Positions 10,198-27,884 of a DNA stretch of 64,000 bases are shown piece after piece. This stretch comes from Bdellovibrionales bacterium. GTDB lineage: Bacteria; Bdellovibrionota; UBA1018; CAIMNF01. The stretch lies in contig JAFEAO010000006.1 of NCBI GenBank assembly GCA_018266375.1, forward strand, positions 222,930 through 286,929, given 5' to 3'. Made by a program: the position numbers and the translations under genes. How positions within the stretch are numbered: position 1 is the first letter of the stretch; the number at the start of each line of letters is the position of its first letter. The notes beneath the pieces are model-generated. The model saw only the letters and a list, made by a program, of their open reading frames with translations, did no database searches and had not been told where the DNA came from.

Positions 10198-10234
10198 TTT
10201 CGCCCTCAGTCTGTCGTGTTCTTGTACACCTTGG

Positions 10235-10252
10235 AAATAGGCTAACCTATTT
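10235..10252. promoter_or_regulatory. Perfect 7-bp inverted repeat (AAATAGG-ctaa-CCTATTT) in a divergent promoter region, candidate operator
   Basis: Seen directly in the sequence between the divergent genes at 10197(-) and 10296(+). Confidence 0.25.
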
Positions 10253-10295
10253 TAGTTATTAAGAAAAGGTGCCGAAGAGAGGATGGGAGAAGGTA

Positions 10296-11216
10296 ATGTT
10301 CAGCATCACAGATTATCGCATGGTAGTACTTTATGCGGGCTACGCATTGATCGCGGCCGCCGTGTTTTGGTTCACGCGGATGCTGCTCAGCGAGCAAGAG
10401 AACATTTCCGCATCCGAAAATTTGCGCGAGATCGATGGCAAGCGCACTTCGAACGCACTCGTGCGCGCGACGCGTCCGTTTTTTTCGCAGTACATTCTCC
10501 CATCCGTTCGCGGACGTCCCGGACTCGAAGAGTCGCGCGTAAAATATCGCCGTAAGATCATCAGCGCAGGCGTGAAAGACGAAATCACCGCCGACGAGTT
10601 TATTGCTTTTAAAATCATGTTGATCGTCGTGTTCCCGCTCATCGCCGGATTCGTCCGCGCGCTCAGTCTCTACGACGTTCCAAAAGAAATTTTCCCGATT
10701 CTCCCGATCCTCGGATATTTCTATCCGGATTTCTGGGTGAGCAGCCTCATCAAAGAGCGTCACGTACGGGTCCTGAAGTCTCTCCCATTCGTCGTGGACT
10801 TGCTTGCGCTCTCGACCGAGGCGGGCTTAGATTTCATCGGTGCGATCCAGAAAGTCGTGGAAAAAGCTTCACCAAGCCCGCTCATTGACGAACTCGAACA
10901 AGTGCTCAAGGAAATCAAAGTGGGTTCATCACGCGCGGAAGCGCTACGCGAGATGGCGTTCAGGATCAATATGCAGGAAGTGAACTCTTTCATCGCGGTA
11001 CTTGTGTCAGCGGATCAGATGGGTGCGTCGATCGGTAAGATCTTGCGCCAGCAATCGGATCAAATTCGGACTCTGCGGTTCGTTCGGGCGGAAAAAATGG
11101 GTGCATTATCCGCACAGAAGTTGATGATTCCAACCTTTGTTCTCATTCTCCCTGCCATTCTTGCAGTAATGCTGGGGCCGTTTTTTTTACATGCGGTGAT
11201 CGGAGGTAACGGATGA
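10296..11216 (+). CDS. tadC: TadC-like pilus assembly membrane protein (T2SS F domain)
   Basis: Topology of TM helices flanking a cytoplasmic GspF-like domain (LPFVVDLLALSTEAGLDF...AEALREMA). Start chosen at MFSITDY (10296) with a GGAGAAGG Shine-Dalgarno. Confidence 0.7.
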   Translation: MFSITDYRMVVLYAGYALIAAAVFWFTRMLLSEQENISASENLREIDGKRTSNALVRATRPFFSQYILPSVRGRPGLEESRVKYRRKIISAGVKDEITADEFIAFKIMLIVVFPLIAGFVRALSLYDVPKEIFPILPILGYFYPDFWVSSLIKERHVRVLKSLPFVVDLLALSTEAGLDFIGAIQKVVEKASPSPLIDELEQVLKEIKVGSSRAEALREMAFRINMQEVNSFIAVLVSADQMGASIGKILRQQSDQIRTLRFVRAEKMGALSAQKLMIPTFVLILPAILAVMLGPFFLHAVIGGNG

Positions 11217-11560
11217 TGATTACCCGTAAACACGATCAGGCGGTAGTGGTTCACGCCGGCAAAATAGCCAACACCTTTGTTTCCCGCCTCGTGGGCTGGA
11301 TCGGCAAACGTCAGGCTCATCTGGGCGAGGGGCTTTGGTTTACCAACAGCAACAGCGCACACATGTGGATGATGAGCATTCCGATCGACGTCGTTTTTTT
11401 GAGCCGCGACCGGAAGATCGTAAAAACGTTTTCGAACTTGAAACCTTGGAGGCCGCTCCCGGTGTTGTGTATTGGCGCGGATTCCATGCTAGAGCTTCCT
11501 GCCGGTACGGTGGAGACGCTGAACTTGAAGAGTGGGGAGGAATTGTGCATCGACTCGTGA
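11213..11560 (+). CDS. DUF192 (COG1430) family protein
   Basis: About 115 aa with a PIDVVFL...LELPAGT pattern typical of DUF192. ATGA overlap with tadC. Confidence 0.55.
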   Translation: MMITRKHDQAVVVHAGKIANTFVSRLVGWIGKRQAHLGEGLWFTNSNSAHMWMMSIPIDVVFLSRDRKIVKTFSNLKPWRPLPVLCIGADSMLELPAGTVETLNLKSGEELCIDS

Positions 11561-13182
11561 TCGTCGCCGGTCCTAACCGGGGCAGTTCATTCGCATTAGT
11601 GGACGGAGACAACTCGATTGGTCGTCAAATAGACAACCATATCGTGCTGACTTCCGTCAAAGTGTCGAAGCGTCACTGCACGGTATCGGTGAATCACGAA
11701 GACGTGATCCTGACCGACGCGGGTAGCACGAACGGCGTGTTCGTGAACGGTGCCTTGGTCAAAAAGCATATTTTGCGTCCGGGCGATCGCGTGAGCGTCG
11801 GTGATTTCGTGCTGGAGTTGATCCGGGTCTCCTATATGACCGGCGCGGCCCCAAGTCAGAACGCTCAACAGATGCCGATGATCCAAAGTCACGGCCAAGT
11901 TTATCCCATGAGCCAGATTGGCGGCGGCGCACTCACCGAGAACACCAATCCGGGTCTCGAAGTGCCGAAGAACGCGCTCGAGGCTCCGGACGATCCGGTT
12001 GGAAAAATTCAGTTCGCGTTTGAAAATCGTTTCATGCCGATCTTCTACGGAATGCTGCTCAAGACCGAGTTCCGCTCGCTCGTGGGCGCGCTCATGGTCG
12101 GAGTGGTCACGCTTTCGGTGGTGGGTTCGATCATGCCGATGCAGGACCTTGCGATGAAGAGTATTCAGCGCGAAGGTTTGATCCGTGCAAAAGTGGTCGC
12201 GCGCGAAATCGCGGATCGTTTTTTGCCGGCGCTCGCTAATCACGCCGAGTCCCAGATCGATCTGTCTCTCATCGAGAACGAAGAGAGTATCAAGATGGCG
12301 GCGATTACCAATACGAGTTTGCAAATCATCGCGCCGCAATCGCGAATCAATCAGTTACTTGCCGGCGGCAAGGAAGCGATCTTCGCCAACTACATGGCAA
12401 AAGAATTTAAAGAAGGCCGCGAGCGCGGTAGCGGGCTCATTATCGGCGATACCGTCGCGGTTTACGTCGAGCCAATCAAAGTTACCGATCCTCGCCAGGT
12501 CAAAACGACGGTTCCGGCGATGGTCGTGGTAGCGGTCGACTTCTCGAATAACTTGATGGCGACCGGAGAGATGGGTGTCACGTACGGCGTGGGATTCGTT
12601 ATTGCAGGGATAGCGGCGTTCTTGGCGTACCTGATTATTCTACGTTTATCGTTTAAGCCCTATGAGGTTTTAAACGATGATCTGGACCAAGTTTTGCGTG
12701 GGGAATTGCCTCGCGTAACGCATGAGTTTAAAATAGAAGAAACGGCTGCGCTTTGGAATAACATCAACGCCGCCATTCAACGCATTCCACGATTGGGAGT
12801 GGGGGGCGATTCAGCCAGCACGGGCGAAACGATCAATGTCGACTGGGACATGGAATTGGCGGCGGTTCGCGCGCTGAGCGAAGCTTCAGGGTTTGGAATG
12901 ATCGGTTTTGATCAAAATTTAACGGTGCAGGCGCTGAACCCTCAGTTCGAGGAAATCAGCGGTATGGGCATCAATGCAATCGGACAGACAGTAAATCAGG
13001 CTGCTCGAGATCAGGCGTTTGTAGCGCTGGTCAATGATCTCATGGAGCGCGTGCTCGGCTCACCTTCACGTTCGGCGCTGGATGTTTTCGAGTTCAGCGG
13101 TTTGAACTATCAGGTGGTGGCGACCGGAGTCGGCCCGGCTTCGCAATCGGGCTTGTCGTTAGTATTCAAAAAGAAGGAGTGA
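11545..13182 (+). CDS. FHA-domain membrane protein
   Basis: N-terminal FHA domain (IGRQIDNHIVLTSVKVSKRHCTV...DAGSTNGVFVNG), at least two TM segments and a large extracytoplasmic region. GTG start at 11545 with a GGGGAGG Shine-Dalgarno, overlapping the DUF192 stop. Confidence 0.75.
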   Translation: MHRLVIVAGPNRGSSFALVDGDNSIGRQIDNHIVLTSVKVSKRHCTVSVNHEDVILTDAGSTNGVFVNGALVKKHILRPGDRVSVGDFVLELIRVSYMTGAAPSQNAQQMPMIQSHGQVYPMSQIGGGALTENTNPGLEVPKNALEAPDDPVGKIQFAFENRFMPIFYGMLLKTEFRSLVGALMVGVVTLSVVGSIMPMQDLAMKSIQREGLIRAKVVAREIADRFLPALANHAESQIDLSLIENEESIKMAAITNTSLQIIAPQSRINQLLAGGKEAIFANYMAKEFKEGRERGSGLIIGDTVAVYVEPIKVTDPRQVKTTVPAMVVVAVDFSNNLMATGEMGVTYGVGFVIAGIAAFLAYLIILRLSFKPYEVLNDDLDQVLRGELPRVTHEFKIEETAALWNNINAAIQRIPRLGVGGDSASTGETINVDWDMELAAVRALSEASGFGMIGFDQNLTVQALNPQFEEISGMGINAIGQTVNQAARDQAFVALVNDLMERVLGSPSRSALDVFEFSGLNYQVVATGVGPASQSGLSLVFKKKE

Positions 13183-13188
13183 TGGAAC

Positions 13189-14223
13189 TTGGAATCCGCT
13201 AAGGTCACCCGATTTAAAGCGACCGATGTCCCTCGCCAGCAAGGCGAGGTGGGACGGATCCGTGTCATCAAAGGACCGGACAAGGGAACCACTTATGTTC
13301 TGAAGGACTCGTCGCTGGTCATCGGCCGCGGCGAAGACGTCGACGTCATGATCACCGACATCAAGGCATCACGCGCTCACGCGCGCCTCGATTACACGTC
13401 GGGTGGTTGGGTGATGAGCGACCTGGGCTCGGCGAACGGAATTTTCTTCCAAGGCGAATACATCCGCAAGTTCGGCGTCGCCAGCCATGACCACTTCACG
13501 GTGGGCGAAACGATTTTAGAGTTTTTGACTCATACCGAGTCCACTCGCGTGTTGATGGCGCCGACCCGTCCGGCTCAAGCCGTCGTGCAACAAGACCGCG
13601 CTCTCATCGCTCAGCGGATGAAAGTGCAATCGATGGCCAAAGGTCCGGAGATTACTCAAAAAGCCGGCGCCAAAAAAGAAGATCCGAAGAAGATCATGCT
13701 CTATTTGGCGCTTCTCGCCGGCGGTTACTACTTTATGTTCATGGACGATAATCCGCCTCCGAAAACCCAGGAGACGAAGAAAGAATCGAAGGTCGAGAAA
13801 GATCAAAACCGCGGGCTTGCGTCTTATCTGCCACCGGGCGTGGGTCGCGAAGCCGCGAAGAGCGCCGAACAAAGTTATTGGGAAGGTTTCCGCGAGTATC
13901 GCGAAGGCCACTACTTGCGTGCCAAGGAACACTTCGAGCTCGCTTTGCAAGTGAATCCGGCGCACGATCTCGCGAGATTTTATTTGAAGAGCGCGGACAA
14001 GGAAATTGACGACGAAGTGAAGAGGATGCTGATGGCGGCGCAGAAGGCGACCGTCGCCGGACGTCTGCGCGAGGCCAAAGGTTATTATGAAACCGCGATG
14101 CGTGCGATGTTTAACGATCGCAGCAATCCGGATTATATCGAAGCGGAGGAAGCTCTGAAAAAGCTCACGAATGAATTGACGGAATCAAACCGTGTACCCG
14201 CCTCGGGGGAGGGTAAACAATGA
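13189..14223 (+). CDS. FHA-domain protein with a TM segment and TPR-like C-terminus
   Basis: FHA motif (IGRGEDVDVMITDIKASRAHARL...DLGSANGIFFQG), TM segment IMLYLALLAGGYYFMF, then a helical repeat region. TTG start with an AAGGAG Shine-Dalgarno 8 nt upstream. Confidence 0.7.
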   Translation: MESAKVTRFKATDVPRQQGEVGRIRVIKGPDKGTTYVLKDSSLVIGRGEDVDVMITDIKASRAHARLDYTSGGWVMSDLGSANGIFFQGEYIRKFGVASHDHFTVGETILEFLTHTESTRVLMAPTRPAQAVVQQDRALIAQRMKVQSMAKGPEITQKAGAKKEDPKKIMLYLALLAGGYYFMFMDDNPPPKTQETKKESKVEKDQNRGLASYLPPGVGREAAKSAEQSYWEGFREYREGHYLRAKEHFELALQVNPAHDLARFYLKSADKEIDDEVKRMLMAAQKATVAGRLREAKGYYETAMRAMFNDRSNPDYIEAEEALKKLTNELTESNRVPASGEGKQ

Positions 14224-16532
14224 GTGCATTAATGAAACTGGAAGTATTTCAGGACGGACAGCTTCTTCAAGAAGTGCCGGTGGATGAAAACGAATTGTGG
14301 GTGGGTCGCGACCAAGGCTGCGTCATCCGGTTGGAAGACCGGGCGATATCTCGCCGGCACGCGCTTTTGAAGAGCACCGATCGCGGCATCGAGTTCGAAA
14401 AGAAATCGAAGTTCGGTTGGGTAAAGGTCAACGGGCAGGACGCAACCCAGATTACCTTGAAATCGGGCGACCGTGTGGAAATGGGTCCGTATGAAATCCG
14501 GGTATCGGGTGCCGATGCTCCGGCGGGTGCAAGCGCGTCCGCGGATGTGATTCAAATGGCTGCTCCTGCCAACACTCCGAACGGAATGACCGTCGGTCCT
14601 GTTGTCGAATCTCCGATCCAACTCAACGATCCGCTAACCGGCGAACCCGTTCCGGGCGTCGAAGCATTGCCAGCCATCGAAATTCCGGCGTCGAATCCGC
14701 CCGAGCACACCAAGGTGCTCGGTCAAACGGCTGAAATCGCAGTCCCAAGCAATGAAAACGGCAATGAGGTCGGCCTCGACGTTCAGAAGATCGAAAAGAC
14801 AAGCGCTGGCGGAAACACCGGCGCGATGGATTACGGCGCGGTGTCGAGCGACGGCGCGACCAAAGTGTTCGGTCGCAAGGATCCGATCAAAGCGATTCTT
14901 CAATTTAACGACGGTCAAGCCAACGTTTCTCAGTATGAACTGAACGACAACGAAATCGCGATTGGCCGTTCGCAGCAGTGTCACGTTGTTCTCGAAGATA
15001 AAAAGTCTTCGCGTAAGCATGCGATCATCCGCCGTGAAGGCGATAAGTATTACTTGAAAGACTTGGGCTCCGCTAACGGTACCCAAGTCAATGGCTCGCG
15101 CGTGGACGACGTCGAACTTCAGAGCGGCGACCAAATCCAAATCGGCGAAACCGCATTCGCATTCAAAATCGTGCAAGCCGACTATGAAATCAAAAAGGAA
15201 GGTTTCATCGCGGTTCCACAGCACGAGATGCCTCCACCGCCGCCAGTCGGCTCGCATCGGGACGCGAACGTGATCGAGTCGTTGGACTATATTCCTCCCG
15301 ATGTGGGCAATGCTCCGACTCCGCAGCCGGAATTCTCAGCTCCGAAAGCCGAAAAGAAATCGTTGATCGGTAAAGCACTCGATCGCTACCGCGCGATGAA
15401 TACCCGCCAGCAGATCATCTGGGGTATCCTGGTTCTCGCCAGCCTGTACGTACTGATGATGGACGAGGAAGGCGATCATCAGCCGGCACGCCTCAACACC
15501 GGCCTCGTTCAAAAGTCGAAAGCGACCAAGCCGGGCGATAGAAAACCGGGTGAAGGCCAGAGCTTCGACGCGTTGACCGCCGAGCAAAAACGTTACATCG
15601 AGACTCAGTATCAGCTCTCGTTCGATCTTTATAAAAACCGCGAGTACGATAAAGCGCTTCTCGAAGTGGGCAAGATATTCAGTCTCGTGCAAGACTACAA
15701 GAACGCACGCGAGATCGAAGCGTTTTCCCGCGAAGGTAAACGTAAGCTTGAAGCTCAGGAAGAAGAACGGAAACGTAAGGAGCAGGAACGTCAAAGCCAG
15801 CTCAAACTTCAAAGCTTGCTCGAGCAAGCCGACATGCTCATGAGCAAAAAGCGATTCCACGAGGCCGAAGCGCTCTTCCCTGAAATCGAATTGATTCAGC
15901 CGGAGAACGCGGCGGTAAACGAATGGCGTAAGATCATCATGGCCGAAGGCGAGCGTCTCGATCGTGAACGCGAAGAGCAAGAGCGTCAGCAAGCGCTCGT
16001 CCGCCAGGGTTGGTCGAAACTCCAACGCGCGGTCGATTACAAAAAGGATCACGACTATCAAACCGCACTCGACGAACTTAACGAGATTGACGAGCTCGGC
16101 GTTCAAGATAGAAAATTGAAGAACGCGGTCCGGGACGAAGATTCCGCGATCCGCGGTCGCATCGCGGCTGAACGCGATCCGCTCCTCGTTCAAGGTAAAG
16201 AACTCGAGCAAAGCGGACAGCTCGCCGAAGCTTACAAGGCTTACGAGAAAGCGCATACTATCGATCCGGACGACAAGGTGTCGGAACAGGGCATGGCCCG
16301 TATTCACGGTAACCTGACCGCCCGGGCGAAGGCTCTATATATAGAGGGCGTCTTTGCCGAAAGCTATAACGATCTGGAGACGGCGGAGCGCAGTTACCGC
16401 GAGATCCTGAGCGTTGTGCCCAAGGACGACGAATATCACGCCAAAGCGGAACTCCGCTTGAAGCGCGTGACTTCATTCCGTAGACCGGCGGGCTCGGCGA
16501 GCAACGCTGGCTCCGGGGAGTCGCCTCAATGA
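14220..16532 (+). CDS. Tandem-FHA (two FHA domains) membrane protein with a long coiled-coil/TPR-like C-terminus
   Basis: FHA 1 (VGRDQGCVIRLEDRAISRRHALL). FHA 2 (IGRSQQCHVVLEDKKSSRKHAII...DLGSANGTQVNG). TM segment IIWGILVLASLYVLMM. Charged coiled-coil region (EERKRKEQERQSQ). ATGA overlap with the upstream gene. Confidence 0.8.
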   Translation: MSALMKLEVFQDGQLLQEVPVDENELWVGRDQGCVIRLEDRAISRRHALLKSTDRGIEFEKKSKFGWVKVNGQDATQITLKSGDRVEMGPYEIRVSGADAPAGASASADVIQMAAPANTPNGMTVGPVVESPIQLNDPLTGEPVPGVEALPAIEIPASNPPEHTKVLGQTAEIAVPSNENGNEVGLDVQKIEKTSAGGNTGAMDYGAVSSDGATKVFGRKDPIKAILQFNDGQANVSQYELNDNEIAIGRSQQCHVVLEDKKSSRKHAIIRREGDKYYLKDLGSANGTQVNGSRVDDVELQSGDQIQIGETAFAFKIVQADYEIKKEGFIAVPQHEMPPPPPVGSHRDANVIESLDYIPPDVGNAPTPQPEFSAPKAEKKSLIGKALDRYRAMNTRQQIIWGILVLASLYVLMMDEEGDHQPARLNTGLVQKSKATKPGDRKPGEGQSFDALTAEQKRYIETQYQLSFDLYKNREYDKALLEVGKIFSLVQDYKNAREIEAFSREGKRKLEAQEEERKRKEQERQSQLKLQSLLEQADMLMSKKRFHEAEALFPEIELIQPENAAVNEWRKIIMAEGERLDREREEQERQQALVRQGWSKLQRAVDYKKDHDYQTALDELNEIDELGVQDRKLKNAVRDEDSAIRGRIAAERDPLLVQGKELEQSGQLAEAYKAYEKAHTIDPDDKVSEQGMARIHGNLTARAKALYIEGVFAESYNDLETAERSYREILSVVPKDDEYHAKAELRLKRVTSFRRPAGSASNAGSGESPQ

Positions 16533-17278
16533 GTTCTAGCGAGTCCTGGGTCAAAACGCGTCTTCCGTTCAAATGGGTCGAGGGATTCCAGCTTCAGGGC
16601 GGACTCCCGGTCCAAGAGGATTACTTCGAGGTCAATGCCGATCGCGGGATTTTTATTTTGGCCGATGGCTTTGGCGGCGGCGCGGGAAAGTACGCAGCCG
16701 AAGTCGCGGTGAAAGCCGTACGCCAATTCTTGGAACAGGAGGCGGGCGACTTGGATGCGACCCTTCCGTTCGAGTTGCGGCCGTATTTTTCGCTCGCGGG
16801 AAACGTACTTTTCAACGCGATTTCTTACGCTAATCAAAAACTCATCGCCGCTAACAAAGGCAAAAACCCGCTGAACTCGGGCGGAACTTCTTTGATCGCG
16901 GGATACCTCGAGGGGCGCTTGCTCTCGGTCGCGAACGTCGGCACCTGCAGTTTGTTTTTATCTCGTGACGGCAAGAGCAAAGAAATTTTGGTCCCGCGCT
17001 CGCTTGCAAAACAAGTGAACCCGTTCGCGGACAGCATGGTAGAAGGCGCCGGCGTGCCTTTGATGAGTCTCGGAACCGCTCGCCAGCTCGAGCCCGAGAT
17101 CGTGGAGATCGAAGTTCGCGAAGGCGACCAGCTTTGTTTTCAATCGGCGCCGGTCACTGCCGAACTTCGCGATCAGTTGTTTCAATTGAATTCCAACAAG
17201 GGATTAAGCCAAATCATTGACGCTCAAGATACGGCGGGCATTCAGGGCAACGCTAGCCTGATTTGGACGGCATTCTAA
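16529..17278 (+). CDS. PP2C-family Ser/Thr protein phosphatase
   Basis: PP2C motifs (FILADGFGGG, GGTSLIAGYL, VANVGTCSLFLSRDG), about 250 aa like Stp/PrpC phosphatases. ATGA overlap with the FHA gene. Confidence 0.75.
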   Translation: MSSSESWVKTRLPFKWVEGFQLQGGLPVQEDYFEVNADRGIFILADGFGGGAGKYAAEVAVKAVRQFLEQEAGDLDATLPFELRPYFSLAGNVLFNAISYANQKLIAANKGKNPLNSGGTSLIAGYLEGRLLSVANVGTCSLFLSRDGKSKEILVPRSLAKQVNPFADSMVEGAGVPLMSLGTARQLEPEIVEIEVREGDQLCFQSAPVTAELRDQLFQLNSNKGLSQIIDAQDTAGIQGNASLIWTAF

Positions 17279-17320
17279 ATACACTCTAAATATGTAATAA
17301 TTAGAGTGAGGGGGAAATCT

Positions 17321-17563
17321 GTGTTTAGGGCATTTTCTCGGAAATTGAAGGTGATTTTACACCGCCGTAAGAAGCGTCGCTTGGGCAACCAAGGGCAAGC
17401 TTTGGTGGAGTACATCATTCTCCTCACGATCGTGATGGGCGTGGTGGCCTATTTCCTGAGTAAAATGACGGGATCCTTTGATATGACGACCGCCAAATAC
17501 GGGGGAGTAATCGAGAAGCAGATCCGAACAGGCTCTGCTCCGGCAACGGTATGGAATCGATAA
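17321..17563 (+). CDS. flp: Flp-family prepilin
   Basis: Basic leader, then G/QALVEYIILLTIV (Flp G-XXXXEY processing motif) and a hydrophobic helix. GTG at 17321 with a GAGGGGG Shine-Dalgarno (the ORF track begins at an upstream GTG at 17306). Confidence 0.6.
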   Translation: MFRAFSRKLKVILHRRKKRRLGNQGQALVEYIILLTIVMGVVAYFLSKMTGSFDMTTAKYGGVIEKQIRTGSAPATVWNR

Positions 17564-17844
17564 TTGCTAAACGCAGGAAGACGCAGTCCGGCCAAGCCGT
17601 ACTCGAGTACATCCTGCTCTTGGCGATCATCGTGTTTTTATATTCGCTGGTTTTGAACTCGATCTCCGGCTCGAACGGCTTCGAGAACATGAAAAAGCCG
17701 CTGACCAAGGACTTCAAGTATACCTATCAATACGGTCATCCTGAGGCGAGGGGTCAAGAAGATGGCGGTCCCAAGTTTATCCCGCAGCATCACGACGGGG
17801 CCCAAAACTTCAGAATTTTCATTAATCCGCCGATTAATGAATAG
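17551..17844 (+). CDS. Flp/TadE-like prepilin (second pilin)
   Basis: SG/QAVLEYILLLAIIVF motif after a basic leader. About 97 aa. Confidence 0.55.
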   Translation: MESIIAKRRKTQSGQAVLEYILLLAIIVFLYSLVLNSISGSNGFENMKKPLTKDFKYTYQYGHPEARGQEDGGPKFIPQHHDGAQNFRIFINPPINE

Positions 17845-17846
17845 AG

Positions 17847-19020: not shown

Positions 19021-19022
19021 CG

Positions 19023-21568: not shown

Positions 21569-21584
21569 TGGGAAGAAGGGTTAG

Positions 21585-23744
21585 ATGGGTCACATTATCG
21601 CGATCGTCGGAGGCAAAGGTGGAGTCGGGAAGAGCGTATTCGCCGCTAACATGGCGATTGCGTATCAACTCAACTTCAAGCAGCGCTCTCTGATTGTAGA
21701 TCTGGATTTCCAATCCTTGGGCGATCAAAACATCATTTTAGGCATGAACCCGCCTAAGAACATCGTCGATTTGACCAAGACTCAGGTCCCTCAGTGGGAT
21801 CCGAAGACGCTTGCGCCTTTCATGATGAACCATCAGCAGGGGTTCAGCTTCATCGGCGCGCCTCGCGAGGCGGCCGTCGCTAAAGACATCGACCTTGACG
21901 GCCTCGGAAAGTTCTTCAAAGCAGCGACTCAGATTTTTCCGTGGGTGATCGTGGACTGCGGCAGCGGTACCGAGCCTCATGCGTTGAAAGCGCTCGAGCA
22001 AGCGACGTTGATCTTCGTCGTGACCACACCGGATGTGATCGTGGTCAATCAAACCCGCCGGATTATGTCGAAGATCCAGGAACTCCTGTTTCCGCCGGAA
22101 ATGATTCAAATCATCATCAACCGTTACTCGCAAACCAACTTGATTAACCCGCAGATGATCCAAAAGAACTTGGGTAAAAGCCCGTTCTTCGCGATCCCGG
22201 AAGAAGCCGCGACCTGCGAGGCGTCCCTCGCGAAGAGTCAGCCGTTTACCATCGCTAACCCGGGCGCGCCGATCTCGCGCGCGTTCTCCGACCTTGTCCG
22301 CCGCATCGATCAAGCCAAGATGCTCGAACAATTGGCGAAGCTCAACAAACCGACCGGTACCGCAAAGAAGCTCGAAGTCATTCAAGGTGGAGCGAGTGCC
22401 AGCATTATGCCTGCCCCAACCGACGGTGGAATCATTTCGCGCTCGCGTTCGGCTCCGGTCGATCCATGGACCGCGATGAAGTTACGCGTGCACCGCGCGC
22501 TTATCGACGTCGTCGACATGAAGAAGATGAACGCCGATATGAACGATCCTCGTCAGAAGGACGTCTTGCGCGCGAAGACCACGAAAGCGATCGTCGACGT
22601 TCTGAATAAAGAAGATTTGGCTCAGTTGTGCCCGACGCGCGAACACCGCGCTCAACTCGTCAAAGAGATCTTGGATGAAGCCTTGGGCTTAGGACCGCTC
22701 GAAGATTTGCTCGCCGACGATACCGTGACCGAGATCATGGTCAATGCGCGCGACCAGATTTACGTCGAGCAAGGCGGCCGCCCCGGCCTCTCGAAAGTAA
22801 CCTTTACCAGCGAACAGCAAATGATGAACGTGATCGAACGGATCGTGACTCCGCTCGGGCGCCGCGTGGATGAAAAAACTCCGTACGTCGACGCTCGTTT
22901 GCAAGACGGTTCGCGGGTGCACGTGATCATTCCGCCACTCGCGCTCCGAGGCCCGACGATTACGATTCGTAAGTTCCCTAAAAAACGGATCGTAGCGACC
23001 GACCTCGTGAAGTTCGGTTCGATGACTCAGGAGATTTCGGATTTTCTCCGTGCCTGCGTCGAAGCCAAGCTCAACATGATCGTGTCGGGTGGTACCGGTT
23101 CAGGTAAAACCACTTTGCTGAATGTATTGTCGAACCATATTCCCGCGAACGAACGGATTATCACCGTCGAGGACGCGGCCGAATTGCAGCTCGGCCAGGA
23201 CCACGTCGTGCGTCTGGAGACTCGTCCGAAAAACATCGAAGGCGAGGGTGAAGTTTCGATTCGTGATTTGATTAAGTCGTGTTTGCGGATGCGTCCTGAC
23301 CGGATTGTGGTCGGTGAGTGTCGGGGCGGCGAAGCCCTCGACATGTTGCAAGCGATGAACACCGGTCACTCGGGGTCGCTCACTACCGTCCATGCCAACA
23401 ACCCACGCGAGTCGCTTGGCCGCCTTGAGACGCTCGTGATGATGGCGGGTTTGGGTCTTCCGCTAAAAGCGATTCGCGAGACGATCGCGTCCGCGGTTAA
23501 CGTAGTCGTGCAACAATCACGTTTGGCGGATGGATCGCGTAAGGTGACCCATATTTCGGAAGTCGTCGGTATTCAAGGCGACACAATCACGCTTCAAGAT
23601 ATTTTCGTGTTCAAGCAAGAAGGTTTGGATAAAAACCGTAAGATCATCGGCCGTTTCGTGCCGACGGGTTTCATCCCAAAATTTATCGAAGAGATGGAAG
23701 CAAAGGGCATGAAGGTCTCACGCGGCCTCTTCGTGGCCAAGTAA
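21585..23744 (+). CDS. Fused TadZ/CpaE-like (ParA/MinD-type) ATPase and TadA/CpaF secretion ATPase
   Basis: N-terminal deviant Walker A IVGGKGGVGKS (ParA/MinD fold, about 260 aa). The C-terminus is a full CpaF/VirB11-type ATPase: Walker A GGTGSGKTT, Asp box, Walker B, His box (GECRGGEALDMLQAMNTGHSGSLTTVHAN). One continuous 719-aa ORF. Confidence 0.85.
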   Translation: MGHIIAIVGGKGGVGKSVFAANMAIAYQLNFKQRSLIVDLDFQSLGDQNIILGMNPPKNIVDLTKTQVPQWDPKTLAPFMMNHQQGFSFIGAPREAAVAKDIDLDGLGKFFKAATQIFPWVIVDCGSGTEPHALKALEQATLIFVVTTPDVIVVNQTRRIMSKIQELLFPPEMIQIIINRYSQTNLINPQMIQKNLGKSPFFAIPEEAATCEASLAKSQPFTIANPGAPISRAFSDLVRRIDQAKMLEQLAKLNKPTGTAKKLEVIQGGASASIMPAPTDGGIISRSRSAPVDPWTAMKLRVHRALIDVVDMKKMNADMNDPRQKDVLRAKTTKAIVDVLNKEDLAQLCPTREHRAQLVKEILDEALGLGPLEDLLADDTVTEIMVNARDQIYVEQGGRPGLSKVTFTSEQQMMNVIERIVTPLGRRVDEKTPYVDARLQDGSRVHVIIPPLALRGPTITIRKFPKKRIVATDLVKFGSMTQEISDFLRACVEAKLNMIVSGGTGSGKTTLLNVLSNHIPANERIITVEDAAELQLGQDHVVRLETRPKNIEGEGEVSIRDLIKSCLRMRPDRIVVGECRGGEALDMLQAMNTGHSGSLTTVHANNPRESLGRLETLVMMAGLGLPLKAIRETIASAVNVVVQQSRLADGSRKVTHISEVVGIQGDTITLQDIFVFKQEGLDKNRKIIGRFVPTGFIPKFIEEMEAKGMKVSRGLFVAK

Positions 23745-23768
23745 TCCGTCCAAAATTTCGCATTACGC

Positions 23769-24635
23769 TCAACTTTTGTCTTCCACGTCTTGCACTTCGA
23801 TCAAGTAGCAGTAAAGATCGCTACGGTTACAGAGTTGGAACGGATAGTAATGATAGCCTTTCTCGCCGCAATCCGTGCCCCAGCTGTTCTTCACGATGAA
23901 GTAACCGCCACCCGCGATGCTGTTGTCGAGTTTGTAACCCACGGCTTCGATCACGTGCTGGCCGCTGGTGTAACCCGAAGTCGCGCTGATGTCGGTCTTA
24001 CAGTTCGCGAGATCGCTTGGCACTTGAATCGCGAGTACGAGAGGCCTTTTATCCCGTCCCATCGCTTGAAGAGCCGGTTTCCAATCGTATTCGAACTCCT
24101 TGTACTGAGTAATTCGGAGGGTCGCGAAGTCCTTATAGTTAGAAGCGCGGCTACCGTTGATCGGCCAGTATTTTTCTTCGGTAATGTAGTTCTTCTTGGC
24201 CGCATCGACCGCGTACCAGGCGTCGTAGACCCCGTAGGTATCCCACAAATGGCGTTCCGAAACGTTTTTGTCGATGCCTTTTGATTTTAGGACGTTGTCC
24301 ATCGCCGCTGCAGTGGCGAACGTCGAGCAGGTCCCGCCGAATTGAGAGACGACCGGCCCGTCGAATTGCCTCATATCCAAGTTATCCGGAATGCCGAGTT
24401 CGATCCCGAGCTTGCTGCTGCCGATACCGCCGCCGACGACCGGAGTGGCTGTTGGAGCCGGAGTCGCGGATGATCTTGGAGTAGGCGTGGGAGACGCTTG
24501 CGGTGACGAGTTCGGGGTCGGACTCGCGGTAGGGTTCGTCGGGTCAAATCCCGCCGGCAATTCGCACGCTGTGAGCAAAAATATGGAGGCGAGGAAGAGA
24601 GATATGTCTCGTCGATAACGTCCTTGTCGCTGCAT
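23769..24635 (-). CDS. Lipoprotein papain-like (C1-family) cysteine peptidase
   Basis: Lipobox LLTAC. Pro/Thr/Ser-rich linker. Catalytic Cys (GGTCSTFATAAAMD), His (SGQHVIEAVGY) and Asn/Trp (IVKNSWGTDCGEKGY) regions. Confidence 0.7.
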   Translation of the reverse strand: MQRQGRYRRDISLFLASIFLLTACELPAGFDPTNPTASPTPNSSPQASPTPTPRSSATPAPTATPVVGGGIGSSKLGIELGIPDNLDMRQFDGPVVSQFGGTCSTFATAAAMDNVLKSKGIDKNVSERHLWDTYGVYDAWYAVDAAKKNYITEEKYWPINGSRASNYKDFATLRITQYKEFEYDWKPALQAMGRDKRPLVLAIQVPSDLANCKTDISATSGYTSGQHVIEAVGYKLDNSIAGGGYFIVKNSWGTDCGEKGYHYYPFQLCNRSDLYCYLIEVQDVEDKS

Positions 24636-24910
24636 TTAAAACTCCTTGATGAATTTTTTTCATATCCCTATGAAAAAATTAAACATCATTTGTAGAATAA
24701 ATGTGTGCGTGAGGGAGTTCTATGTTTTTTGATCTAAGACATCGAGTCAAAAGGTTGGCAATTCCACCAGTAGAAGGAAGTTTCTAATTTTTATATACAA
24801 TTTGTGTAAAAAATAAATATTAAAACCTTACTCGGAATTAAAAATTTCGCACGCACCGCACAAAAACGCTGAATCCTTCCTGTTTTTAAATCATCGTTAT
24901 AGAATAGTAA

Positions 24911-25789
24911 GTGATGAACTTCGCAGCTCCGCACTGGCTACTTGCGATCGTGGTATTTATCTCCGCGCTTTTGGTAGCCTACCAATTTTCGGGCCGTATC
25001 TTGGATTGGATTCGCTTCCAATCCATCGGCACGCGCGACTACATCGCCGACAAGTTGCAGTTGATGATGATGGACATCCCGCCTGAACGGATTTTGATCG
25101 GGCAGGTGAGCTTAAGTCTGGGCTTAGGGATGCTGGTGTTCCTCCTGTGTTTGCCGAATTTCGCGGTAGGCGGCATTTTCGGCGTGATTTCGATGTTAAT
25201 CGGGTGGATTCTTCCTCGACCGATCATCGATATCATGTACGGCAGCCGGTGCACTAAGTTTGTCGAGCAGATGGTCGACGGCTTGGGCCTCATGTCTAAC
25301 GGCATGCGCTCGGGACTTTCGGTCGTGCAAGCGATGGGTCTCGTCGCGCAAGAGATGCCGAATCCGATTCAGCAGGAGTTCAATCTGATTTTGAGTCAGA
25401 ACAAACTCGGCGTTTCTCTCGAAGAGGCTTTCTTGAATCTTTCTCGCCGGGTTGTCGCCGACGAGGTCGAGATGTTCGTGACGTCCGTAAATATTTTGAA
25501 AGAAACCGGCGGTAATTTGGCGGAGACGTTCGATACGATCACGACCTTGATTCGCGAGCGGATCAAGGTTGAAGGAAAAATCAAAGCAATGACCGCCCAG
25601 GCTTTCTGGCAGGGCATTATCTTGATGTGCGTACCTCCGTTTATGGCGACCGTACTCAGTCAGTCCGATCCTGAACTCATGCGTCCGATGTTTACGCACC
25701 CGCTCGGTTGGGTGATTTTGACGGTGGTTGTGATCCTCGAGGTCGCGGCGTTTTTTATGATTCGGAAAGTTACAAAAATCGACGTATAA
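24911..25789 (+). CDS. tadB: Flp pilus assembly protein TadB (T2SS F domain)
   Basis: GspF-like domain flanked by TM helices. Preceded by a 275-bp AT-rich divergent promoter region. Confidence 0.8.
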   Translation: MMNFAAPHWLLAIVVFISALLVAYQFSGRILDWIRFQSIGTRDYIADKLQLMMMDIPPERILIGQVSLSLGLGMLVFLLCLPNFAVGGIFGVISMLIGWILPRPIIDIMYGSRCTKFVEQMVDGLGLMSNGMRSGLSVVQAMGLVAQEMPNPIQQEFNLILSQNKLGVSLEEAFLNLSRRVVADEVEMFVTSVNILKETGGNLAETFDTITTLIRERIKVEGKIKAMTAQAFWQGIILMCVPPFMATVLSQSDPELMRPMFTHPLGWVILTVVVILEVAAFFMIRKVTKIDV

Positions 25790-25867
25790 TCAATAGTGTA
25801 AGTTTAAAGTCGGCAGTTCAGACTTCGGTAGTGATACTACAGCAGTTTCGCTTCAGAGGAGAGAATC

Positions 25868-27556
25868 ATGAAGATTCTATTGGCATTGGGTGTATTAACT
25901 TCGATTTCAACCGCCTATGCGCGCGCGGATGTGAGTCTGCGTAACGGTAACTTTTACGTTACTTTCCGCGATATTTCTTATCCTGGCGGGATCGAACCCA
26001 AGTTCGAACGTGTTTATAACTCCAAATCCGATTTTCACGGTATCTTCGGCTTCGGTTGGGGAACCGAGTATGAAACCTCGCTTGCGATCGATTCCGACGG
26101 CAGTATCGTCGTCAACGAGTACGGCGGCGGGGCTGAAAACCGTTTTACGTCGAAGAATGCCAAGCCCGCTGATCTTGAAAAGGGCGTGAATGATCTCGTC
26201 GAAGCCGCGAAAAAGAGCGGTGTCGTGACAACGAAAGCCCAGATCGACGATTTTAGAACTCATTTGAAAACCGATTTTGAATTCCGTTCGAGACAATACG
26301 GCATTTACTCGAATAAAGGTCTCGTCGCCAAGAAAGCGGTCCGGGAAGGGACGCAGTTTACTTCGACCCGCTATCTGTACCAGTACATCACTAAGGTCAA
26401 AGGCGGTTACGTCCGCGTGATGGAAGGCGGCGTGATTCAAAAATTCAACGAGGCGGGCAGACTCGTTCAGATCATGGATCGTAACAAAAACTTCGTGAAC
26501 TTCAGTTACGATAAGGGCAATAGACTGGTGCAGCTCGTGGACAACCAGAACCGCAAAATGATCCTAAGCTACAATACCCAGGGCTTGGTCGAGAAAATTG
26601 TCGGCGAGAGCGGTAAAAATACGGCTTACAAATACACTAAAGAAGGTCTTCTGAGTTATTGCAGGGACGATGTCGGCGAAGAGAATACTTTTGCTTACAC
26701 GACGGACGCCTACCGGAACTTGTCCGAGATCGGTTATCCGAAAGAGAAAGACTCTAAGGGTAAGCCCAAAAAGATGTCCATCTCTTACTACGGCTCGGAT
26801 AAAAACACCGGCGTAAAATCGGTGACCAATCCGGATGGAAGCGTGAACGAATACGAATATTACAAGGACCCGAAAAATCCGGACTACTACGGAGTGCGCG
26901 TGTTCCTGAAAGATTCTTCGGGCGCGCGGATCAGCGACGCAAAATATGAATACTTTTCAAAACCTCGTCCGGGCGGCGAGGTCTTTACCCAAAAGATGAT
27001 TTCAACCGTCGATGGCGACAAAACTGAAACCTATTACGACTTGAAAACCGGATTTCCGGCTAAAGTCGTGAACGGCACTCGCGTGACGACGATGGCGTAC
27101 GACGTAAAAGGCCGTCTTGTTAAAAAGGTCACCCCGATCGAAACCACCGAGCTCAGTTACGATGCTAAAGTAGGGAAGGTCAATAAAGTCGTACGCAAGC
27201 TAAAGAGCGGAACCGTGCTCTGGAGCCAGTTCGAATACGAGGCATCGACCGGCAACTTATCTCTCGCCAAAAATAACGAAAAGAAGCAAGTGAAGTTGAT
27301 CCACGACACCGCCGGAAATATCCGCGCGCTTATCGATCAGAGCGGCCGCAAACTTACGTTTAAGTACAACGAGCTTTCAAAGCCGGTTGAGATCTCGGAT
27401 GCGAAGCTCGGTACCGTGAAGGTGATGTATAAAAACAGTGGCGAAGTCGATAAGATCGAGAGTAACGGCGGCAGTAACGTCGCGACCGAGGTCATGCGAG
27501 CGCTTCAGGGTTTGCTTGATATCACTGCTCCGGCGGGTGTGAGTTTAGGTTTGTAA
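25868..27556 (+). CDS. Secreted YD/RHS-repeat protein
   Basis: Signal peptide MKILLALGVLTSISTAYARA. Several YD repeats (NFVNFSYDKGNRLVQLVDNQNRKMILSYNTQGLVEKIV, MAYDVKGRLVKKV, LSYDAKVGKVNKV). No toxin tail. Confidence 0.6.
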   Translation: MKILLALGVLTSISTAYARADVSLRNGNFYVTFRDISYPGGIEPKFERVYNSKSDFHGIFGFGWGTEYETSLAIDSDGSIVVNEYGGGAENRFTSKNAKPADLEKGVNDLVEAAKKSGVVTTKAQIDDFRTHLKTDFEFRSRQYGIYSNKGLVAKKAVREGTQFTSTRYLYQYITKVKGGYVRVMEGGVIQKFNEAGRLVQIMDRNKNFVNFSYDKGNRLVQLVDNQNRKMILSYNTQGLVEKIVGESGKNTAYKYTKEGLLSYCRDDVGEENTFAYTTDAYRNLSEIGYPKEKDSKGKPKKMSISYYGSDKNTGVKSVTNPDGSVNEYEYYKDPKNPDYYGVRVFLKDSSGARISDAKYEYFSKPRPGGEVFTQKMISTVDGDKTETYYDLKTGFPAKVVNGTRVTTMAYDVKGRLVKKVTPIETTELSYDAKVGKVNKVVRKLKSGTVLWSQFEYEASTGNLSLAKNNEKKQVKLIHDTAGNIRALIDQSGRKLTFKYNELSKPVEISDAKLGTVKVMYKNSGEVDKIESNGGSNVATEVMRALQGLLDITAPAGVSLGL

Positions 27557-27632
27557 GTGTTTGTTTTTAAATGATATTAATTTAATAAACTCAAAATTAC
27601 ATTTGAGATACACTAGTCAGGAGAGGTTCTGG

Positions 27633-27884
27633 ATGAAAACCGTAAGTATTTTAAGTCTTTTGATTCTCGCCGTCGTTACTGAAGTTCGCGCCGAGATGAC
27701 CACCAGCCAGACCAACGCTAACGAGCCTTACTATTGCGAACCCTGTAAGAAGTGGATTTTCCCGAAACTGGGCTCAAAGAACGACGCCGTCGCGCCCACG
27801 GCCGTCGTCGAGGACGCGGTAGCTCCGGGTGAGGTTCGTAAGGCCAACGATGCGGTCGATCCTCCTGCTTCTGGGACGCATTAA
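27633..27884 (+). CDS. Small secreted protein (83 aa) with an Ala/Val/Asp/Pro repeat tail
   Basis: MKTVSILSLLILAVVTEVRA signal peptide with an AGGAGAGG Shine-Dalgarno. C-terminal imperfect repeats (NDAVAPTAVVEDAVAPGEV...NDAVDPPA) encoded by near-direct DNA repeats. Confidence 0.45.
   Translation: MKTVSILSLLILAVVTEVRAEMTTSQTNANEPYYCEPCKKWIFPKLGSKNDAVAPTAVVEDAVAPGEVRKANDAVDPPASGTH

Follow-up and report, generated by a model that had tools for sequence, protein, structure and literature searches.

The Tad system of Bdellovibrio bacteriovorus is required for predation (Duncan 2019, PMC6561027; Tesseur 2026, bioRxiv 10.64898/2026.07.08.737194) and belongs to a Kil-like clade (Seef et al. 2021, PMC8460266). 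Bd0110 to Bd0119 and Bd0470 were assigned to it in supplement 2 of PMC8460266. Bd0470–0475 form one operon, in which Bd0473 has an FHA domain, Bd0474 has two FHA domains and TPR, and Bd0475 is listed as hypothetical; Bd0474 binds another TPR protein, Bd0075, through its own C-terminal TPR domain (PMC12034629). The mutants Bd0470::tn and Bd0474::tn lose prey killing, and the Bd0474 mutant attaches to prey that are then not rounded (PMC6561027). Bd0109, an RHS/YD protein, binds Bd0108, and the two are periplasmic partners that influence piliation (PMC3818213). The Kil system of Myxococcus xanthus (MXAN_3102–3108 and MXAN_4648–4661) is also derived from Tad, and Seef et al. propose that it may deliver an unknown toxin (PMC8460266).

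The window analysed here, 64,000 nucleotides in its whole length, comes from an uncultured Bdellovibrionales bacterium whose genome is available as a MAG only. Positions 10269–27884 encode TadC, a DUF192 protein, three membrane FHA proteins (FHA1–FHA3), a PP2C-fold protein, Flp-type pilins, two TadE-like proteins, CpaB, a secretin, a TadZ–TadA fusion (TadZA) and TadB (Table 1). All of the genes named in an initial annotation were found in their places by Pfam profile searches (FHA, PP2C_2, T2SSF, T2SSE, RcpC and Secretin all matched) or, for the pilin and pseudopilin genes, by motif and position, since none of these four ORFs reached its Pfam cut-off. That annotation left unnamed the papain-like, RHS/YD and 83-aa secreted protein genes in the same interval. 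The coupling of genes that it described agrees with their packing: the 12 junctions from tadC to tadZA all measure between -16 and +42 nt, with overlaps at seven (4 nt between tadC and the DUF192 gene). We consider it likely that the block encodes, in full, a type IVc ("Kil-like") Tad pilus system from a member of Bdellovibrionota, together with an FHA control layer.

Table 1. Genes of the Tad block, with positions in the window
Feature	Position	Strand	Evidence
tadC, inner-membrane platform, Bd0470/KilH counterpart	10269..11216	+	Pfam T2SSF 57 bits; 3 hydrophobic segments
DUF192 protein	11213..11560	+	Pfam DUF192 60.7 bits
FHA1, sensor-like, without kinase	11545..13182	+	FHA 60.9 bits
FHA2, FHA-TM-TPR, Bd0473-like	13189..14223	+	FHA 44.4 bits; TPR_2
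FHA3, two cytoplasmic FHA-TM-TPR, Bd0474-like	14220..16532	+	FHA 114.9 bits in two stretches; TPR_2 37 bits
PP2C-fold protein, in the place of Bd0475	16529..17278	+	PP2C_2 26.9 bits
Flp-type prepilin	17321..17563	+	motif GQALVEYIILL; Class_IIIsignal E=0.012
97-aa minor-pilin-like protein, class III signal	17551..17844	+	motif SGQAVLEYILLL
TadE-like pseudopilin 1	17847..18461	+	motif SGQALIEFVLGL; Pfam TadE E=0.016
TadE-like pseudopilin 2 (weak assignment)	18451..19020	+	motif SGQSILEVVFIL; Pfam TadE E=0.92
CpaB/RcpC	19023..19862	+	RcpC 79.7 bits; TIGR03177 138 bits
CpaC/RcpA secretin	19862..21568	+	Secretin 39.1 bits; weak BON; signal peptide
TadZ-TadA (CpaE-CpaF) fusion ATPase	21585..23744	+	CbiA/ParA, residues 3-216; T2SSE 217.8 bits, residues 367-647
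Papain-family (C1) lipoprotein protease	23769..24635	-	Peptidase_C1 56.7 bits; lipobox LLTAC
tadB, second platform protein, Bd0110/KilG counterpart	24914..25789	+	T2SSF 68.8 bits
RHS/YD-repeat periplasmic protein, Bd0109 counterpart (hit locus)	25868..27556	+	DUF6531 49.5 bits; RHS_repeat 63.1 bits; YD_repeat; signal peptide
83-aa secreted low-complexity Cys-pair protein, Bd0108 positional counterpart	27633..27884	+	signal peptide MKTVSILSLLILAVVTEVRA

The block corresponds to three loci of B. bacteriovorus HD100 that have been studied separately, namely Bd0470–0475 (the tadC operon), Bd0110–0119 (tad locus 1) and Bd0108/0109 (the hit locus), and gene order, sizes and domain architecture point to it as the counterpart of that Tad system. 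For the tadC unit we infer orthology to Bd0470–0475 from published sizes and architectures, not from direct alignment. Shared features are the TadZ–TadA fusion, the order cpaB-secretin-tadZA-tadB-RHS-small ORF, a tadC followed by a DUF192 gene, three FHA proteins (one with two FHA domains and TPR) and a protein of about 230–250 aa, and a locus without TadV. However, the three loci are contiguous and on one strand here, whereas HD100 has tadC and the accompanying FHA genes at a separate site; the gene that closes the tadC unit encodes a protein of predicted PP2C fold, a papain-like gene stands between tadZA and tadB, and there is a single short flp gene.

The contiguous order was recognized in no fewer than seven further loci of Bdellovibrionota. 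The unit TadC-DUF192-FHA-FHA-2xFHA/TPR-PP2C exists in L002 and L082 to L087 (headed by tadC in L082, L083, L086 and L087), and, where the contig permits, the PP2C gene is followed by the pilin, cpaB, secretin, tadZA, tadB and RHS genes. The contig of L086 stops at the PP2C gene. Synteny covers the tadC-to-PP2C unit in L086 and L087 and the whole block in L002 and L082 to L085. The cultured Bdellovibrio sp. HCB288 (L007) retains cpaB-cpaC-tadZA-tadB-RHS-small ORF. Domains and synteny thus agree with a machine of the Tad/Flp type in which an FHA/PP2C module is embedded, as annotated initially; the FHA and PP2C genes are kept with tad genes in relatives and are not an unrelated insertion. Among 80 loci, drawn from many phyla, 33 have a DUF192 homologue close to TadA, and DUF192 is a common Tad-associated accessory gene.

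The TadZ–TadA fusion has a Walker motif (GGKGGVGKS) at its N-terminus and shows 100% identity to a protein from a Bdellovibrionales MAG at NCBI. All four of the pilin and pseudopilin ORFs carry the class III prepilin motif G/QA(L/V)(V/I/L)E(Y/F/V)-hydrophobic and occupy the same position as the pilin genes of relatives. The Flp-type prepilin is the orthologue of the second flp gene of L082 and L083, its C-terminus matching L082 11089–11304. The 97-aa protein, considered as a typical Flp ("Flp2"), proved instead to be a conserved minor-pilin-like protein with relatives in L082 (99 aa), L083 (92 aa) and L002. Homologues of TadE-like pseudopilin 1 were found in L002, L004 and L005, and one of pseudopilin 2 in L002. 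Because the locus has no prepilin peptidase (TadV/CpaA), this enzyme must be encoded elsewhere. Relatives keep a further flp gene and an A24 peptidase that the clade of the window has lost; its major pilin may therefore come from another part of the genome, or its filament may differ. The papain-like gene interrupts tadZA-tadB in this genome only, being absent from L002 and L082 to L085 (tadB follows tadZA in L002 to L007), and is a lineage-specific insertion outside the conserved system.

The RHS/YD gene follows tadB in L002, L003, L004, L006, L007 and L082 to L085, and a small secreted low-complexity ORF comes after it in L084, L085, L006 and L007 (with a CxxC-like pair) and in L002 (with a single Cys). 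The 83-aa protein shows no sequence homology and is the counterpart of Bd0108 by position only. The hit locus was treated initially as a neighbour of the tad cluster in Bdellovibrio; here its homologues lie inside the interval itself.

In the predicted structure of FHA1 (AF2 pLDDT 87.4), an FHA domain is followed by a TM segment, a periplasmic PAS/Cache-like domain, a second TM segment, HAMP-like helices and a cytoplasmic PAS domain. The best Foldseek match of the model is the WalK sensor-kinase model 9a5d_A (391 columns), and residues ~150–545 are arranged as in WalK-type histidine kinases (TM, extracytoplasmic PAS/Cache-like, TM, HAMP, PAS). Unlike these, FHA1 has no DHp or catalytic ATPase domain and has an N-terminal FHA domain instead, so that on the model it looks like a transmembrane sensor of the WalK kind whose kinase part is substituted by an FHA domain. 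Hydrophobic segments (170–195 and 337–366 in FHA1, ~169–185 in FHA2, ~399–414 in FHA3) support membrane anchoring of all three proteins. FHA2, whose start codon (TTG) is uncertain, has the pThr-pocket residues GR, SRAH and SANG, and FHA3 has the published architecture of Bd0474 (PMC12034629). TagH and FhaB family models also match the FHA proteins.

The PP2C-fold protein exceeds the PP2C_2 cut-off of 24 bits, falls below that of PF00481 and matches the Stp1 family (E=1e-14); its AF2 model (pLDDT 89.8) resembles tPphA, PstP and PppA (Foldseek TM 0.77–0.83). The core metal-binding aspartates of motifs VIII and XI are lost, A207 and G240 being aligned with D193 and D231 of tPphA. Because these two are missing, the protein is probably a pseudo-phosphatase in this clade, and a role as phosphatase "off switch" is doubtful, D193A being a known variant of tPphA (2xzv). 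Of the phosphatase in the initial annotation, therefore, the fold remains and the catalytic aspartates are gone. Its description of the machine as gated by Ser/Thr phosphorylation is not supported: neither the window ORFs of at least 100 aa nor six related loci contain a Hanks kinase, so phosphorylation here is an assumption.

As annotated initially, FHA and FHA+TPR genes adjoin platform genes in the M. xanthus kil clusters, MXAN_4648/4649 lying beside KilH/KilG. Kil and the window block also share a single ATPase and a locus in which TadD, RcpB and TadG were not found. However, the Kil hallmark, an FHA–ATPase fusion (KilF has an N-terminal FHA domain), is replaced here by fusion of the ATPase to TadZ. 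The Kil genes, which lie in two clusters, include one for a prepilin peptidase (KilA), and no PP2C-like, RHS or DUF192 gene appears in the kil gene tables; similarity between the FHA proteins is limited to the FHA domain. The proposed Kil-like apparatus accordingly holds for the FHA accessories and the clade of the matching system, and not for a KilF-type fusion. With the tad and cpa loci of Aggregatibacter and Caulobacter, the block shares the Flp-type motif, TadE-like proteins, RcpC/CpaB, RcpA/CpaC, TadZ/CpaE, TadA/CpaF, TadB and TadC. It differs in the fused TadZ and TadA, in the distance of tadC from tadB (~14 kb), in the absence of TadV/CpaA, TadD, RcpB and TadG from the window, and in the added FHA, PP2C and RHS genes. 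The type VI threonine-phosphorylation pathway of Pseudomonas aeruginosa (the kinase PpkA, the PP2C phosphatase PppA, Fha1 and FHA proteins of the TagH type) likewise combines an envelope machine with FHA and PP2C-fold genes, PppA being among the structural matches mentioned above; in the window, however, a PpkA-like kinase is absent, the PP2C protein lacks two catalytic aspartates, and the machine is of the type IV filament kind, not contractile.

Could the FHA proteins be a structural inner-membrane ring or scaffold, as YscD/PrgH in type III and TagH in type VI systems, linking platform, motor and periplasmic parts without phosphorylation? Every FHA domain also matches Yop-YscD_cpl, MXAN_4649, which adjoins KilH, has been called PrgH-like, the locus itself encodes no kinase, the PP2C protein is degenerate, and FHA2 and FHA3 have periplasmic TPR domains, the kind of domain by which Bd0474 binds Bd0075. 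Nevertheless, three of the four FHA domains keep the residues that bind pThr (GR, SxxH, N), and G26, R27, S41, H44 and N63 of FHA1 are invariant among 62 homologues. The nearest structures to the FHA1 domain are the phospho-dependent GarA and OdhI (38% identity), ahead of YscD, and more basal relatives retain an apparently active PP2C. We therefore hold a purely structural role to be possible but rather doubtful.

It seems unlikely that the locus encodes just an ordinary adhesive Tad pilus, used in biofilms or to attach to surfaces, in a Bdellovibrionota lineage that does not prey and whose likeness to B. bacteriovorus reflects shared ancestry only. The organism is uncultured, its clade no longer has a peptidase gene in the locus and is short of one flp gene, Tad loci with DUF192 occur in many phyla, and TadZ–TadA fusions are found also in Firmicutes, Chloroflexota and Acidobacteriota. 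In-frame FHA–TadA fusions in genomes of the non-predators Piscinibacter, Thauera, Oleiphilus and Lentisphaeria mean that FHA near tad genes is not specific to predators. However, the full accessory set (the unit of three FHA proteins and PP2C, the Bd0109-like RHS protein and the small secreted protein) matches that of B. bacteriovorus, which needs these genes to invade or kill prey, the RHS partner is restricted to Bdellovibrionota among the 80 loci, and TadZA identity of 84–92% across the clade indicates strong constraint. Still less credible is that the RHS gene and the small ORF directly downstream form a toxin–immunity pair, the machine delivering an RHS toxin to prey. RHS_repeat and DUF6531 matches and the toxin delivery proposed for Kil by Seef et al. 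would suit it, but the RHS protein (562 aa) has no DPxGL cleavage motif or C-terminal toxin domain, the small ORF, with its signal peptide and low complexity, is unlike cytoplasmic immunity proteins, and Bd0109 and Bd0108 are periplasmic and affect piliation.

In the FHA-controlled Tad system that we favor, the TadZ–TadA motor would assemble Flp-type prepilins, cleaved by the peptidase encoded elsewhere, and minor pilins on the TadB/TadC platform, and the filament would be extruded via the CpaC secretin, with CpaB as periplasmic link. The control layer, upstream in the same packed gene string, would consist of FHA1, FHA2 and FHA3, all anchored in the inner membrane with their FHA domains in the cytoplasm. 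FHA1 resembles a sensor kinase reduced to its input part (periplasmic PAS/Cache-like, HAMP, cytoplasmic PAS), and FHA2 and FHA3 would have TPR domains facing the periplasm. Most likely, the periplasmic domains of these proteins would sense events in the periplasm or envelope at prey contact. A kinase encoded outside the locus would make phospho-threonine sites, and binding of the FHA domains to these would carry the signal into the cytoplasm, so that the Tad motor or platform would be recruited or released. The PP2C-fold protein, probably non-enzymatic in this clade, may bind the FHA proteins as a partner or decoy, and the RHS/YD and small secreted proteins, as Bd0109/Bd0108, may modulate pilus behaviour from the periplasm. 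The sequence shows the gene content, folds, motif states and conserved synteny; pilus function, signalling direction and a role in predation are what we infer for this organism, presumed predatory from its taxonomy only. In short, the system itself is not new, the need for these genes in predation and their Kil-like class being already published, and the apparently inactive phosphatase is among the few new details that the locus adds to it.

All of the genes named for this interval in the initial annotation were recovered by ORF listing and by Pfam and NCBIfam scans, and three genes it had not described (for a papain-like protease, an RHS/YD protein and an 83-aa protein) were found among them (see the table). 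The locus encodes a TadA/CpaF ATPase, the GspF-like proteins TadB and TadC, a secretin, RcpC/CpaB and TadZ/CpaE, all of which are components expected of a Tad system. The TadZ part of the ATPase fusion is recognized by CbiA, ParA and MinD matches on residues 1-250. Since all 12 junctions from tadC to tadZA (the TadZ-TadA fusion gene) lie between -16 and +42 nt, seven of them being overlaps, the description of these genes as tightly packed and probably co-translated is fair. Promoter and terminator scans of positions 9400-28200 gave 11 and 28 hits, against 10.6 and 25.8 in shuffled sequence; without any excess, they carry no information on the operon structure. In an Rfam search, a single tRNA was the only match in the window, with no RNA element close to the locus.

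Genes of the Tad locus, with window coordinates, strand and supporting matches or remarks
Gene or product	Position	Strand	Match or remark
tadC	10269-11216	+	T2SSF 57 bits
DUF192	11213-11560	+	
FHA1	11545-13182	+	
FHA2	13189-14223	+	FHA+TPR
FHA3	14220-16532	+	two FHA domains + TPR
PP2C-fold protein	16529-17278	+	
Two short proteins with putative class III signal	17321-17563 and 17551-17844	+	
TadE-like proteins (putative)	17847-18461 and 18451-19020	+	
cpaB/rcpC	19023-19862	+	RcpC 79.7 bits; TIGR03177 138 bits
Secretin (RcpA/CpaC)	19862-21568	+	Secretin 39.1 bits
TadZ-TadA, ParA/MinD-like + T2SSE fusion	21585-23744	+	719 aa, one ORF; T2SSE 217.8 bits; TIGR03819 332 bits
Papain-family C1 protease, lipobox	23769-24635	-	between tadZA and tadB
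tadB	24914-25789	+	T2SSF 68.8 bits
DUF6531/RHS/YD-repeat protein, secreted, 562 aa	25868-27556	+	after tadB
83-aa low-complexity secreted protein with Cys pair	27633-27884	+	after RHS gene

One gene order, tadC - DUF192 - FHA - FHA(TPR) - 2xFHA(TPR) - PP2C-like - flp genes - TadE-like genes - rcpC - secretin - tadZA - tadB - RHS - small ORF, is common to the related loci L002 (from an Oligoflexia MAG), L082, L083, L084 and L085. The unit from tadC to the PP2C-like gene was also recognized in L086 (a 'Bdellovibrio sp.' MAG) and L087, and is therefore kept in seven related loci. The possibility that the FHA and PP2C genes were an unrelated insertion did not survive this comparison: because the same unit is syntenic across related loci, it is a conserved part of the locus that belongs with the tad genes. 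In a TadZA scan of genome contigs, at least six Bdellovibrionota loci were among the matches listed, most of which came from distant phyla; the Bdellovibrionota loci beyond those six were obtained from exact-protein look-ups. TadZA and FHA1 are 100% identical to NCBI proteins labelled 'MAG: Bdellovibrionales bacterium'.

In B. bacteriovorus HD100, Bd0110 encodes TadB, Bd0111 the ATPase, Bd0112 the secretin, Bd0113 CpaB, Bd0115 a TadE-like protein and Bd0117/0119 Flp, and Bd0470 is a separate TadC (PMC8460266). Bd0470-0475 form one operon, in which Bd0473 is a 386-aa FHA protein, Bd0474 (674 aa) combines a pair of cytoplasmic FHA domains with a TPR domain outside the cytoplasm, and Bd0475 is a 228-aa 'hypothetical' protein (PMC12034629). 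The window shares with HD100 the TadZ-TadA fusion and, as published for Bd0470-0475, a tadC unit with FHA and FHA+TPR proteins, and it agrees in order, size and architecture, Bd0471-0475 being compared through published sizes and domain descriptions. The situation differs in that three separate loci of HD100 (the tadC operon, the main tad cluster Bd0110-0119 and the hit locus Bd0108/0109) form a single contiguous string in the window, as they also do in several further Bdellovibrionota lineages. To judge from this gene order, the contiguity shows that the three loci belong together. The cultured Bdellovibrio sp. HCB288 (L007) has the order cpaB-secretin-tadZA-tadB-RHS-small secreted ORF.

The core of the initial interpretation was right. 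The system itself is already known and is under active study in B. bacteriovorus, and no new machine has been found here. Transposon mutants of Bd0470 and Bd0474 do not kill prey, and the Bd0474 mutant attaches without rounding of the prey (PMC6561027). Depletion of the Tad core in HD100 abolishes prolonged attachment and invasion, and the machine is located at the invasive pole, and TadZA binds RomR (bioRxiv 10.64898/2026.07.08.737194).

The three membrane FHA proteins contain four FHA domains in all, and two of the proteins also have TPR domains; by hydrophobicity, FHA1 has two membrane segments, and FHA2 and FHA3 have a single one each. In the AF2 model of FHA1 (pLDDT 87.4), an FHA domain (1-94) is followed by a disordered linker, a TM helix, a periplasmic alpha/beta domain of PAS/Cache-like type, a second TM helix, HAMP-like helices and a cytoplasmic PAS domain (434-543), and Foldseek aligned it best to a WalK sensor-kinase model, across 391 columns. 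On the basis of this predicted layout and the WalK match, FHA1 is an input module of sensor-kinase type that bears an FHA domain but no kinase. Its FHA domain is 38% identical to those of GarA/OdhI, and all 62 homologues keep the residues of the pThr pocket (G26, R27, S41, H44 and N63) unchanged. FHA1, FHA2 and the second FHA3 domain have all of the pocket residues Gly-Arg, Ser-x-x-His and Asn; the Asn is missing from the first FHA3 domain. Neither the window ORFs of at least 100 aa nor the gene tables of six related loci contain a Hanks-type kinase.

The PP2C fold of the next protein is certain in its predicted structure (AF2 pLDDT 89.8), for which Foldseek gave E = 2e-18 and TM values of 0.77-0.83 to tPphA, PstP and the T6SS regulator PppA. 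The metal ligands of motif I (E30-D31) and motif II (D46-G47-F48-G49-G50) are invariant in 56 aligned homologues. D193 and D231 of tPphA, which we take to be the motif VIII and motif XI Asp that act as M1/M2 ligands, align to A207 and G240 of the window protein, and the position of tPphA D119 is T139. Both of these motif VIII/XI Asp are kept in only 16 of 119 homologues, the most distant 16; the remaining homologues have S, A, G, T or P in these columns, with the rest of the protein conserved. The D/D state occurs in L082 and L086, and also in the N-terminally truncated protein of L087, itself without motifs I and II; L083 has D/E, and both Asp are lost in the window, L084, L085 and L002. These substitutions suggest that in the clade of the window the protein is a pseudo-phosphatase. 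The literature on Bdellovibrio Tad and Kil-like systems examined makes no mention of a phosphatase in the Bd0470-0475 operon; in the databases, homologues are annotated PrpC/PP2C. AlphaFold-Multimer gave a weak Bd0475-Bd0473 contact prediction for HD100, with ipTM 0.60 (PMC12034629).

The evidence best supports a Tad pilus machine in which the three membrane FHA proteins would control assembly or firing. The PAS/Cache-like domain of FHA1 and the TPR domains of FHA2 and FHA3 would sense the periplasm, the FHA domains would bind phospho-threonine partners in the cytoplasm, and the PP2C-fold protein would be a non-catalytic partner in the system of the window. The kinase would be encoded elsewhere in the genome; as there is no kinase gene nearby, it is there that the writer of the phospho-signal should be sought. 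The RHS/small-protein pair may modulate the pilus on the periplasmic side, a role that has been proposed for Bd0109/Bd0108. The missing kinase and the degenerate phosphatase speak for the main rival explanation, in which the FHA proteins are purely structural; the strict conservation of the pThr pocket speaks against it.

The assignments of the pilins and pseudopilins are the weakest part of the analysis, as they are based on a G/QA-x-x-E-(Y/F/V) motif, a hydrophobic stretch and gene position. All Pfam matches of these ORFs were below the cut-offs; the class III prepilin signal (G/XXXXEY) is seen in the sequence as GQALVEY and GQAVLEY. The two TadE-like proteins matched TadE with E = 0.016 and 0.92, also under the cut-off, and their motif and gene position fit. 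No window ORF matched Peptidase_A24 (TadV/CpaA), and a tblastn search of the window with the A24 proteins of L082 and L083 found nothing. In L002, L082 and L083 a pair of flp genes precedes a Peptidase_A24 gene; the window, L084 and L085 have only the second flp and lack the peptidase gene (spans compared: window 17278-17560, L002 5169-6037, L082 10880-11836, L083 11178-12258). In the more distant relatives, the first flp and the peptidase gene sit between the PP2C-like gene and the 97-aa pilin-like gene. Both are also missing in L001, which is, like L084 and L085, a close relative of the window. HD100 has no TadV, and PilD processes Flp1 (bioRxiv 10.64898/2026.07.08.737194).

The papain-like C1 protease has a lipoprotein signal and a Pro/Thr-rich linker. 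Its gene is missing between tadZA and tadB in every related locus examined, and the tadZA-tadB gap is 1169 nt in the window versus less than 100 nt in loci without it. Because of this absence from all relatives examined, the gene is taken as a recent insertion; a search for direct or inverted repeats flanking it found none, and thus no mark of a mobile element.

The RHS/YD protein and the small secreted protein directly follow tadB, the small ORF being matched by position and character only. In HD100, the neighbour of Bd0110 is Bd0109, an RHS/YD-repeat protein; it binds Bd0108, which is small and disordered, and the two form the classical hit locus (PMC3818213). A toxin-immunity pair was considered and rejected. 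The RHS protein, 562 aa in total, has nothing beyond DUF6531 and YD repeats, with no DPxG[LW] cleavage motif and no toxin domain, and the ORF 3' of it bears a signal peptide, unlike the cytoplasmic immunity protein of Rhs toxins. Small secreted ORFs in this position were also found in L084 (14895-15465, as two tandem genes), L085 (14899-15129), L006 (14756) and L007 (14734). They have almost no common sequence; with few exceptions, a signal peptide is followed by a mature part of low complexity, and the cysteines form a CxxC-like pair.

Bdellovibrio genes were placed in a 'Kil-like' clade by Seef et al., who stressed the excess of FHA proteins in kil clusters (PMC8460266). Kil is the Tad-derived contact-killing machine of Myxococcus xanthus, and FHA and FHA+TPR accessory genes are likewise over-represented in the window cluster. 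However, the Kil ATPase, KilF, has an N-terminal FHA domain, whereas the N-terminus of the window ATPase is ParA/MinD-like. True fusions of FHA to TadA are present in L046 and L055. In L056, L057, L071, L054, L059 and L023, from Piscinibacter, Oleiphilus, Thauera, Lentisphaeria and further non-predatory taxa, an FHA domain lies in frame about 400 nt upstream of the TadA match, giving a fusion ATPase of the KilF type, and tadB-tadC come next; this architecture is therefore not confined to predators. DUF192 follows tadB-tadC in L054, L056, L057 and L071. Among the matches listed, 33 of 80 loci, drawn from many phyla, have DUF192 near TadA. TadZ-TadA fusions of full length, with 36-43% identity along the entire protein (L008-L081), are widespread in Firmicutes, Chloroflexota, Acidobacteriota, Actinomycetota, Nitrospirota and other groups; a fusion described as atypical for B. 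bacteriovorus is thus common among genomes from metagenomes. Among the loci fetched, only the RHS partner and the unit of three FHA genes and PP2C are confined to Bdellovibrionota. A rough NJ tree of the TadA domain, without support values and too weak to establish membership of the Kil clade, placed Bdellovibrionota apart from the other TadZA fusions and nearer to an unfused TadA group, which includes Myxococcus-type sequences that are not sister to the Bdellovibrionota clade.

Outside the locus, window 31-7818 is syntenic with L086 1-5654 (carboxyl transferase, biotin carboxylase, biotin carrier, methylmalonyl-CoA mutase and a divergent GH3 glycosidase), but between GH3 and tadC the window additionally carries a pair of ABC permease genes and the gene of a 241-aa secreted protein (7833-10197, - strand). 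Genes for lipoyl synthase, 2-oxoacid dehydrogenase E2, dihydrolipoyl dehydrogenase E3 and lipoate-protein ligase lie directly 3' of the hit-like genes (27978-32377, + strand) and are conserved in L084 and L085. Between the lipoate ligase and trypsin-like protease genes, overlapping ORFs of 405 aa and 878 aa (32430-36280, + strand) have no Pfam, NCBIfam or PADLOC match and are missing at this position in L084 and L085; PADLOC and NCBIfam likewise gave no match for the other unannotated ORFs at 5688-6815, 9472-10197, 51680-52885 and 55162-56307. Window 46139-51659, with a DnaJ-HTH protein, a ParA/MinD-like ATPase, a 219-aa protein, a histidine kinase and a sigma-54-type response regulator, could be a regulatory cluster.

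The locus is of value for the contiguity of the three loci, for the assignment of a PP2C fold whose catalytic residues are lost in particular lineages, and for the resemblance of FHA1 to a sensor. For the question of how Bdellovibrio-like predators sense contact with prey and trigger invasion, three leads are offered: the protein at the Bd0475 position has a predicted PP2C fold with an active site that seems intact in some lineages and degenerate in others, the protein at the Bd0472 position is a sensor-kinase-like receptor with an FHA output, and the absence of a nearby kinase gene directs the search for the kinase to the rest of the genome. A bolder reading, which we regard as rather unlikely, is that the tadC-linked unit is a previously undescribed, kinase-less transmembrane relay, in which a WalK-like FHA1 with FHA output, two FHA-TM-TPR partners and a PP2C-fold protein, turned pseudo-phosphatase in some lineages, would link firing of the Tad motor to cues from the envelope or from contact with prey. 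If that were true, the contiguity would put the long-puzzling hit locus (Bd0108/0109) functionally with the Tad machine and not with type IVa pili.
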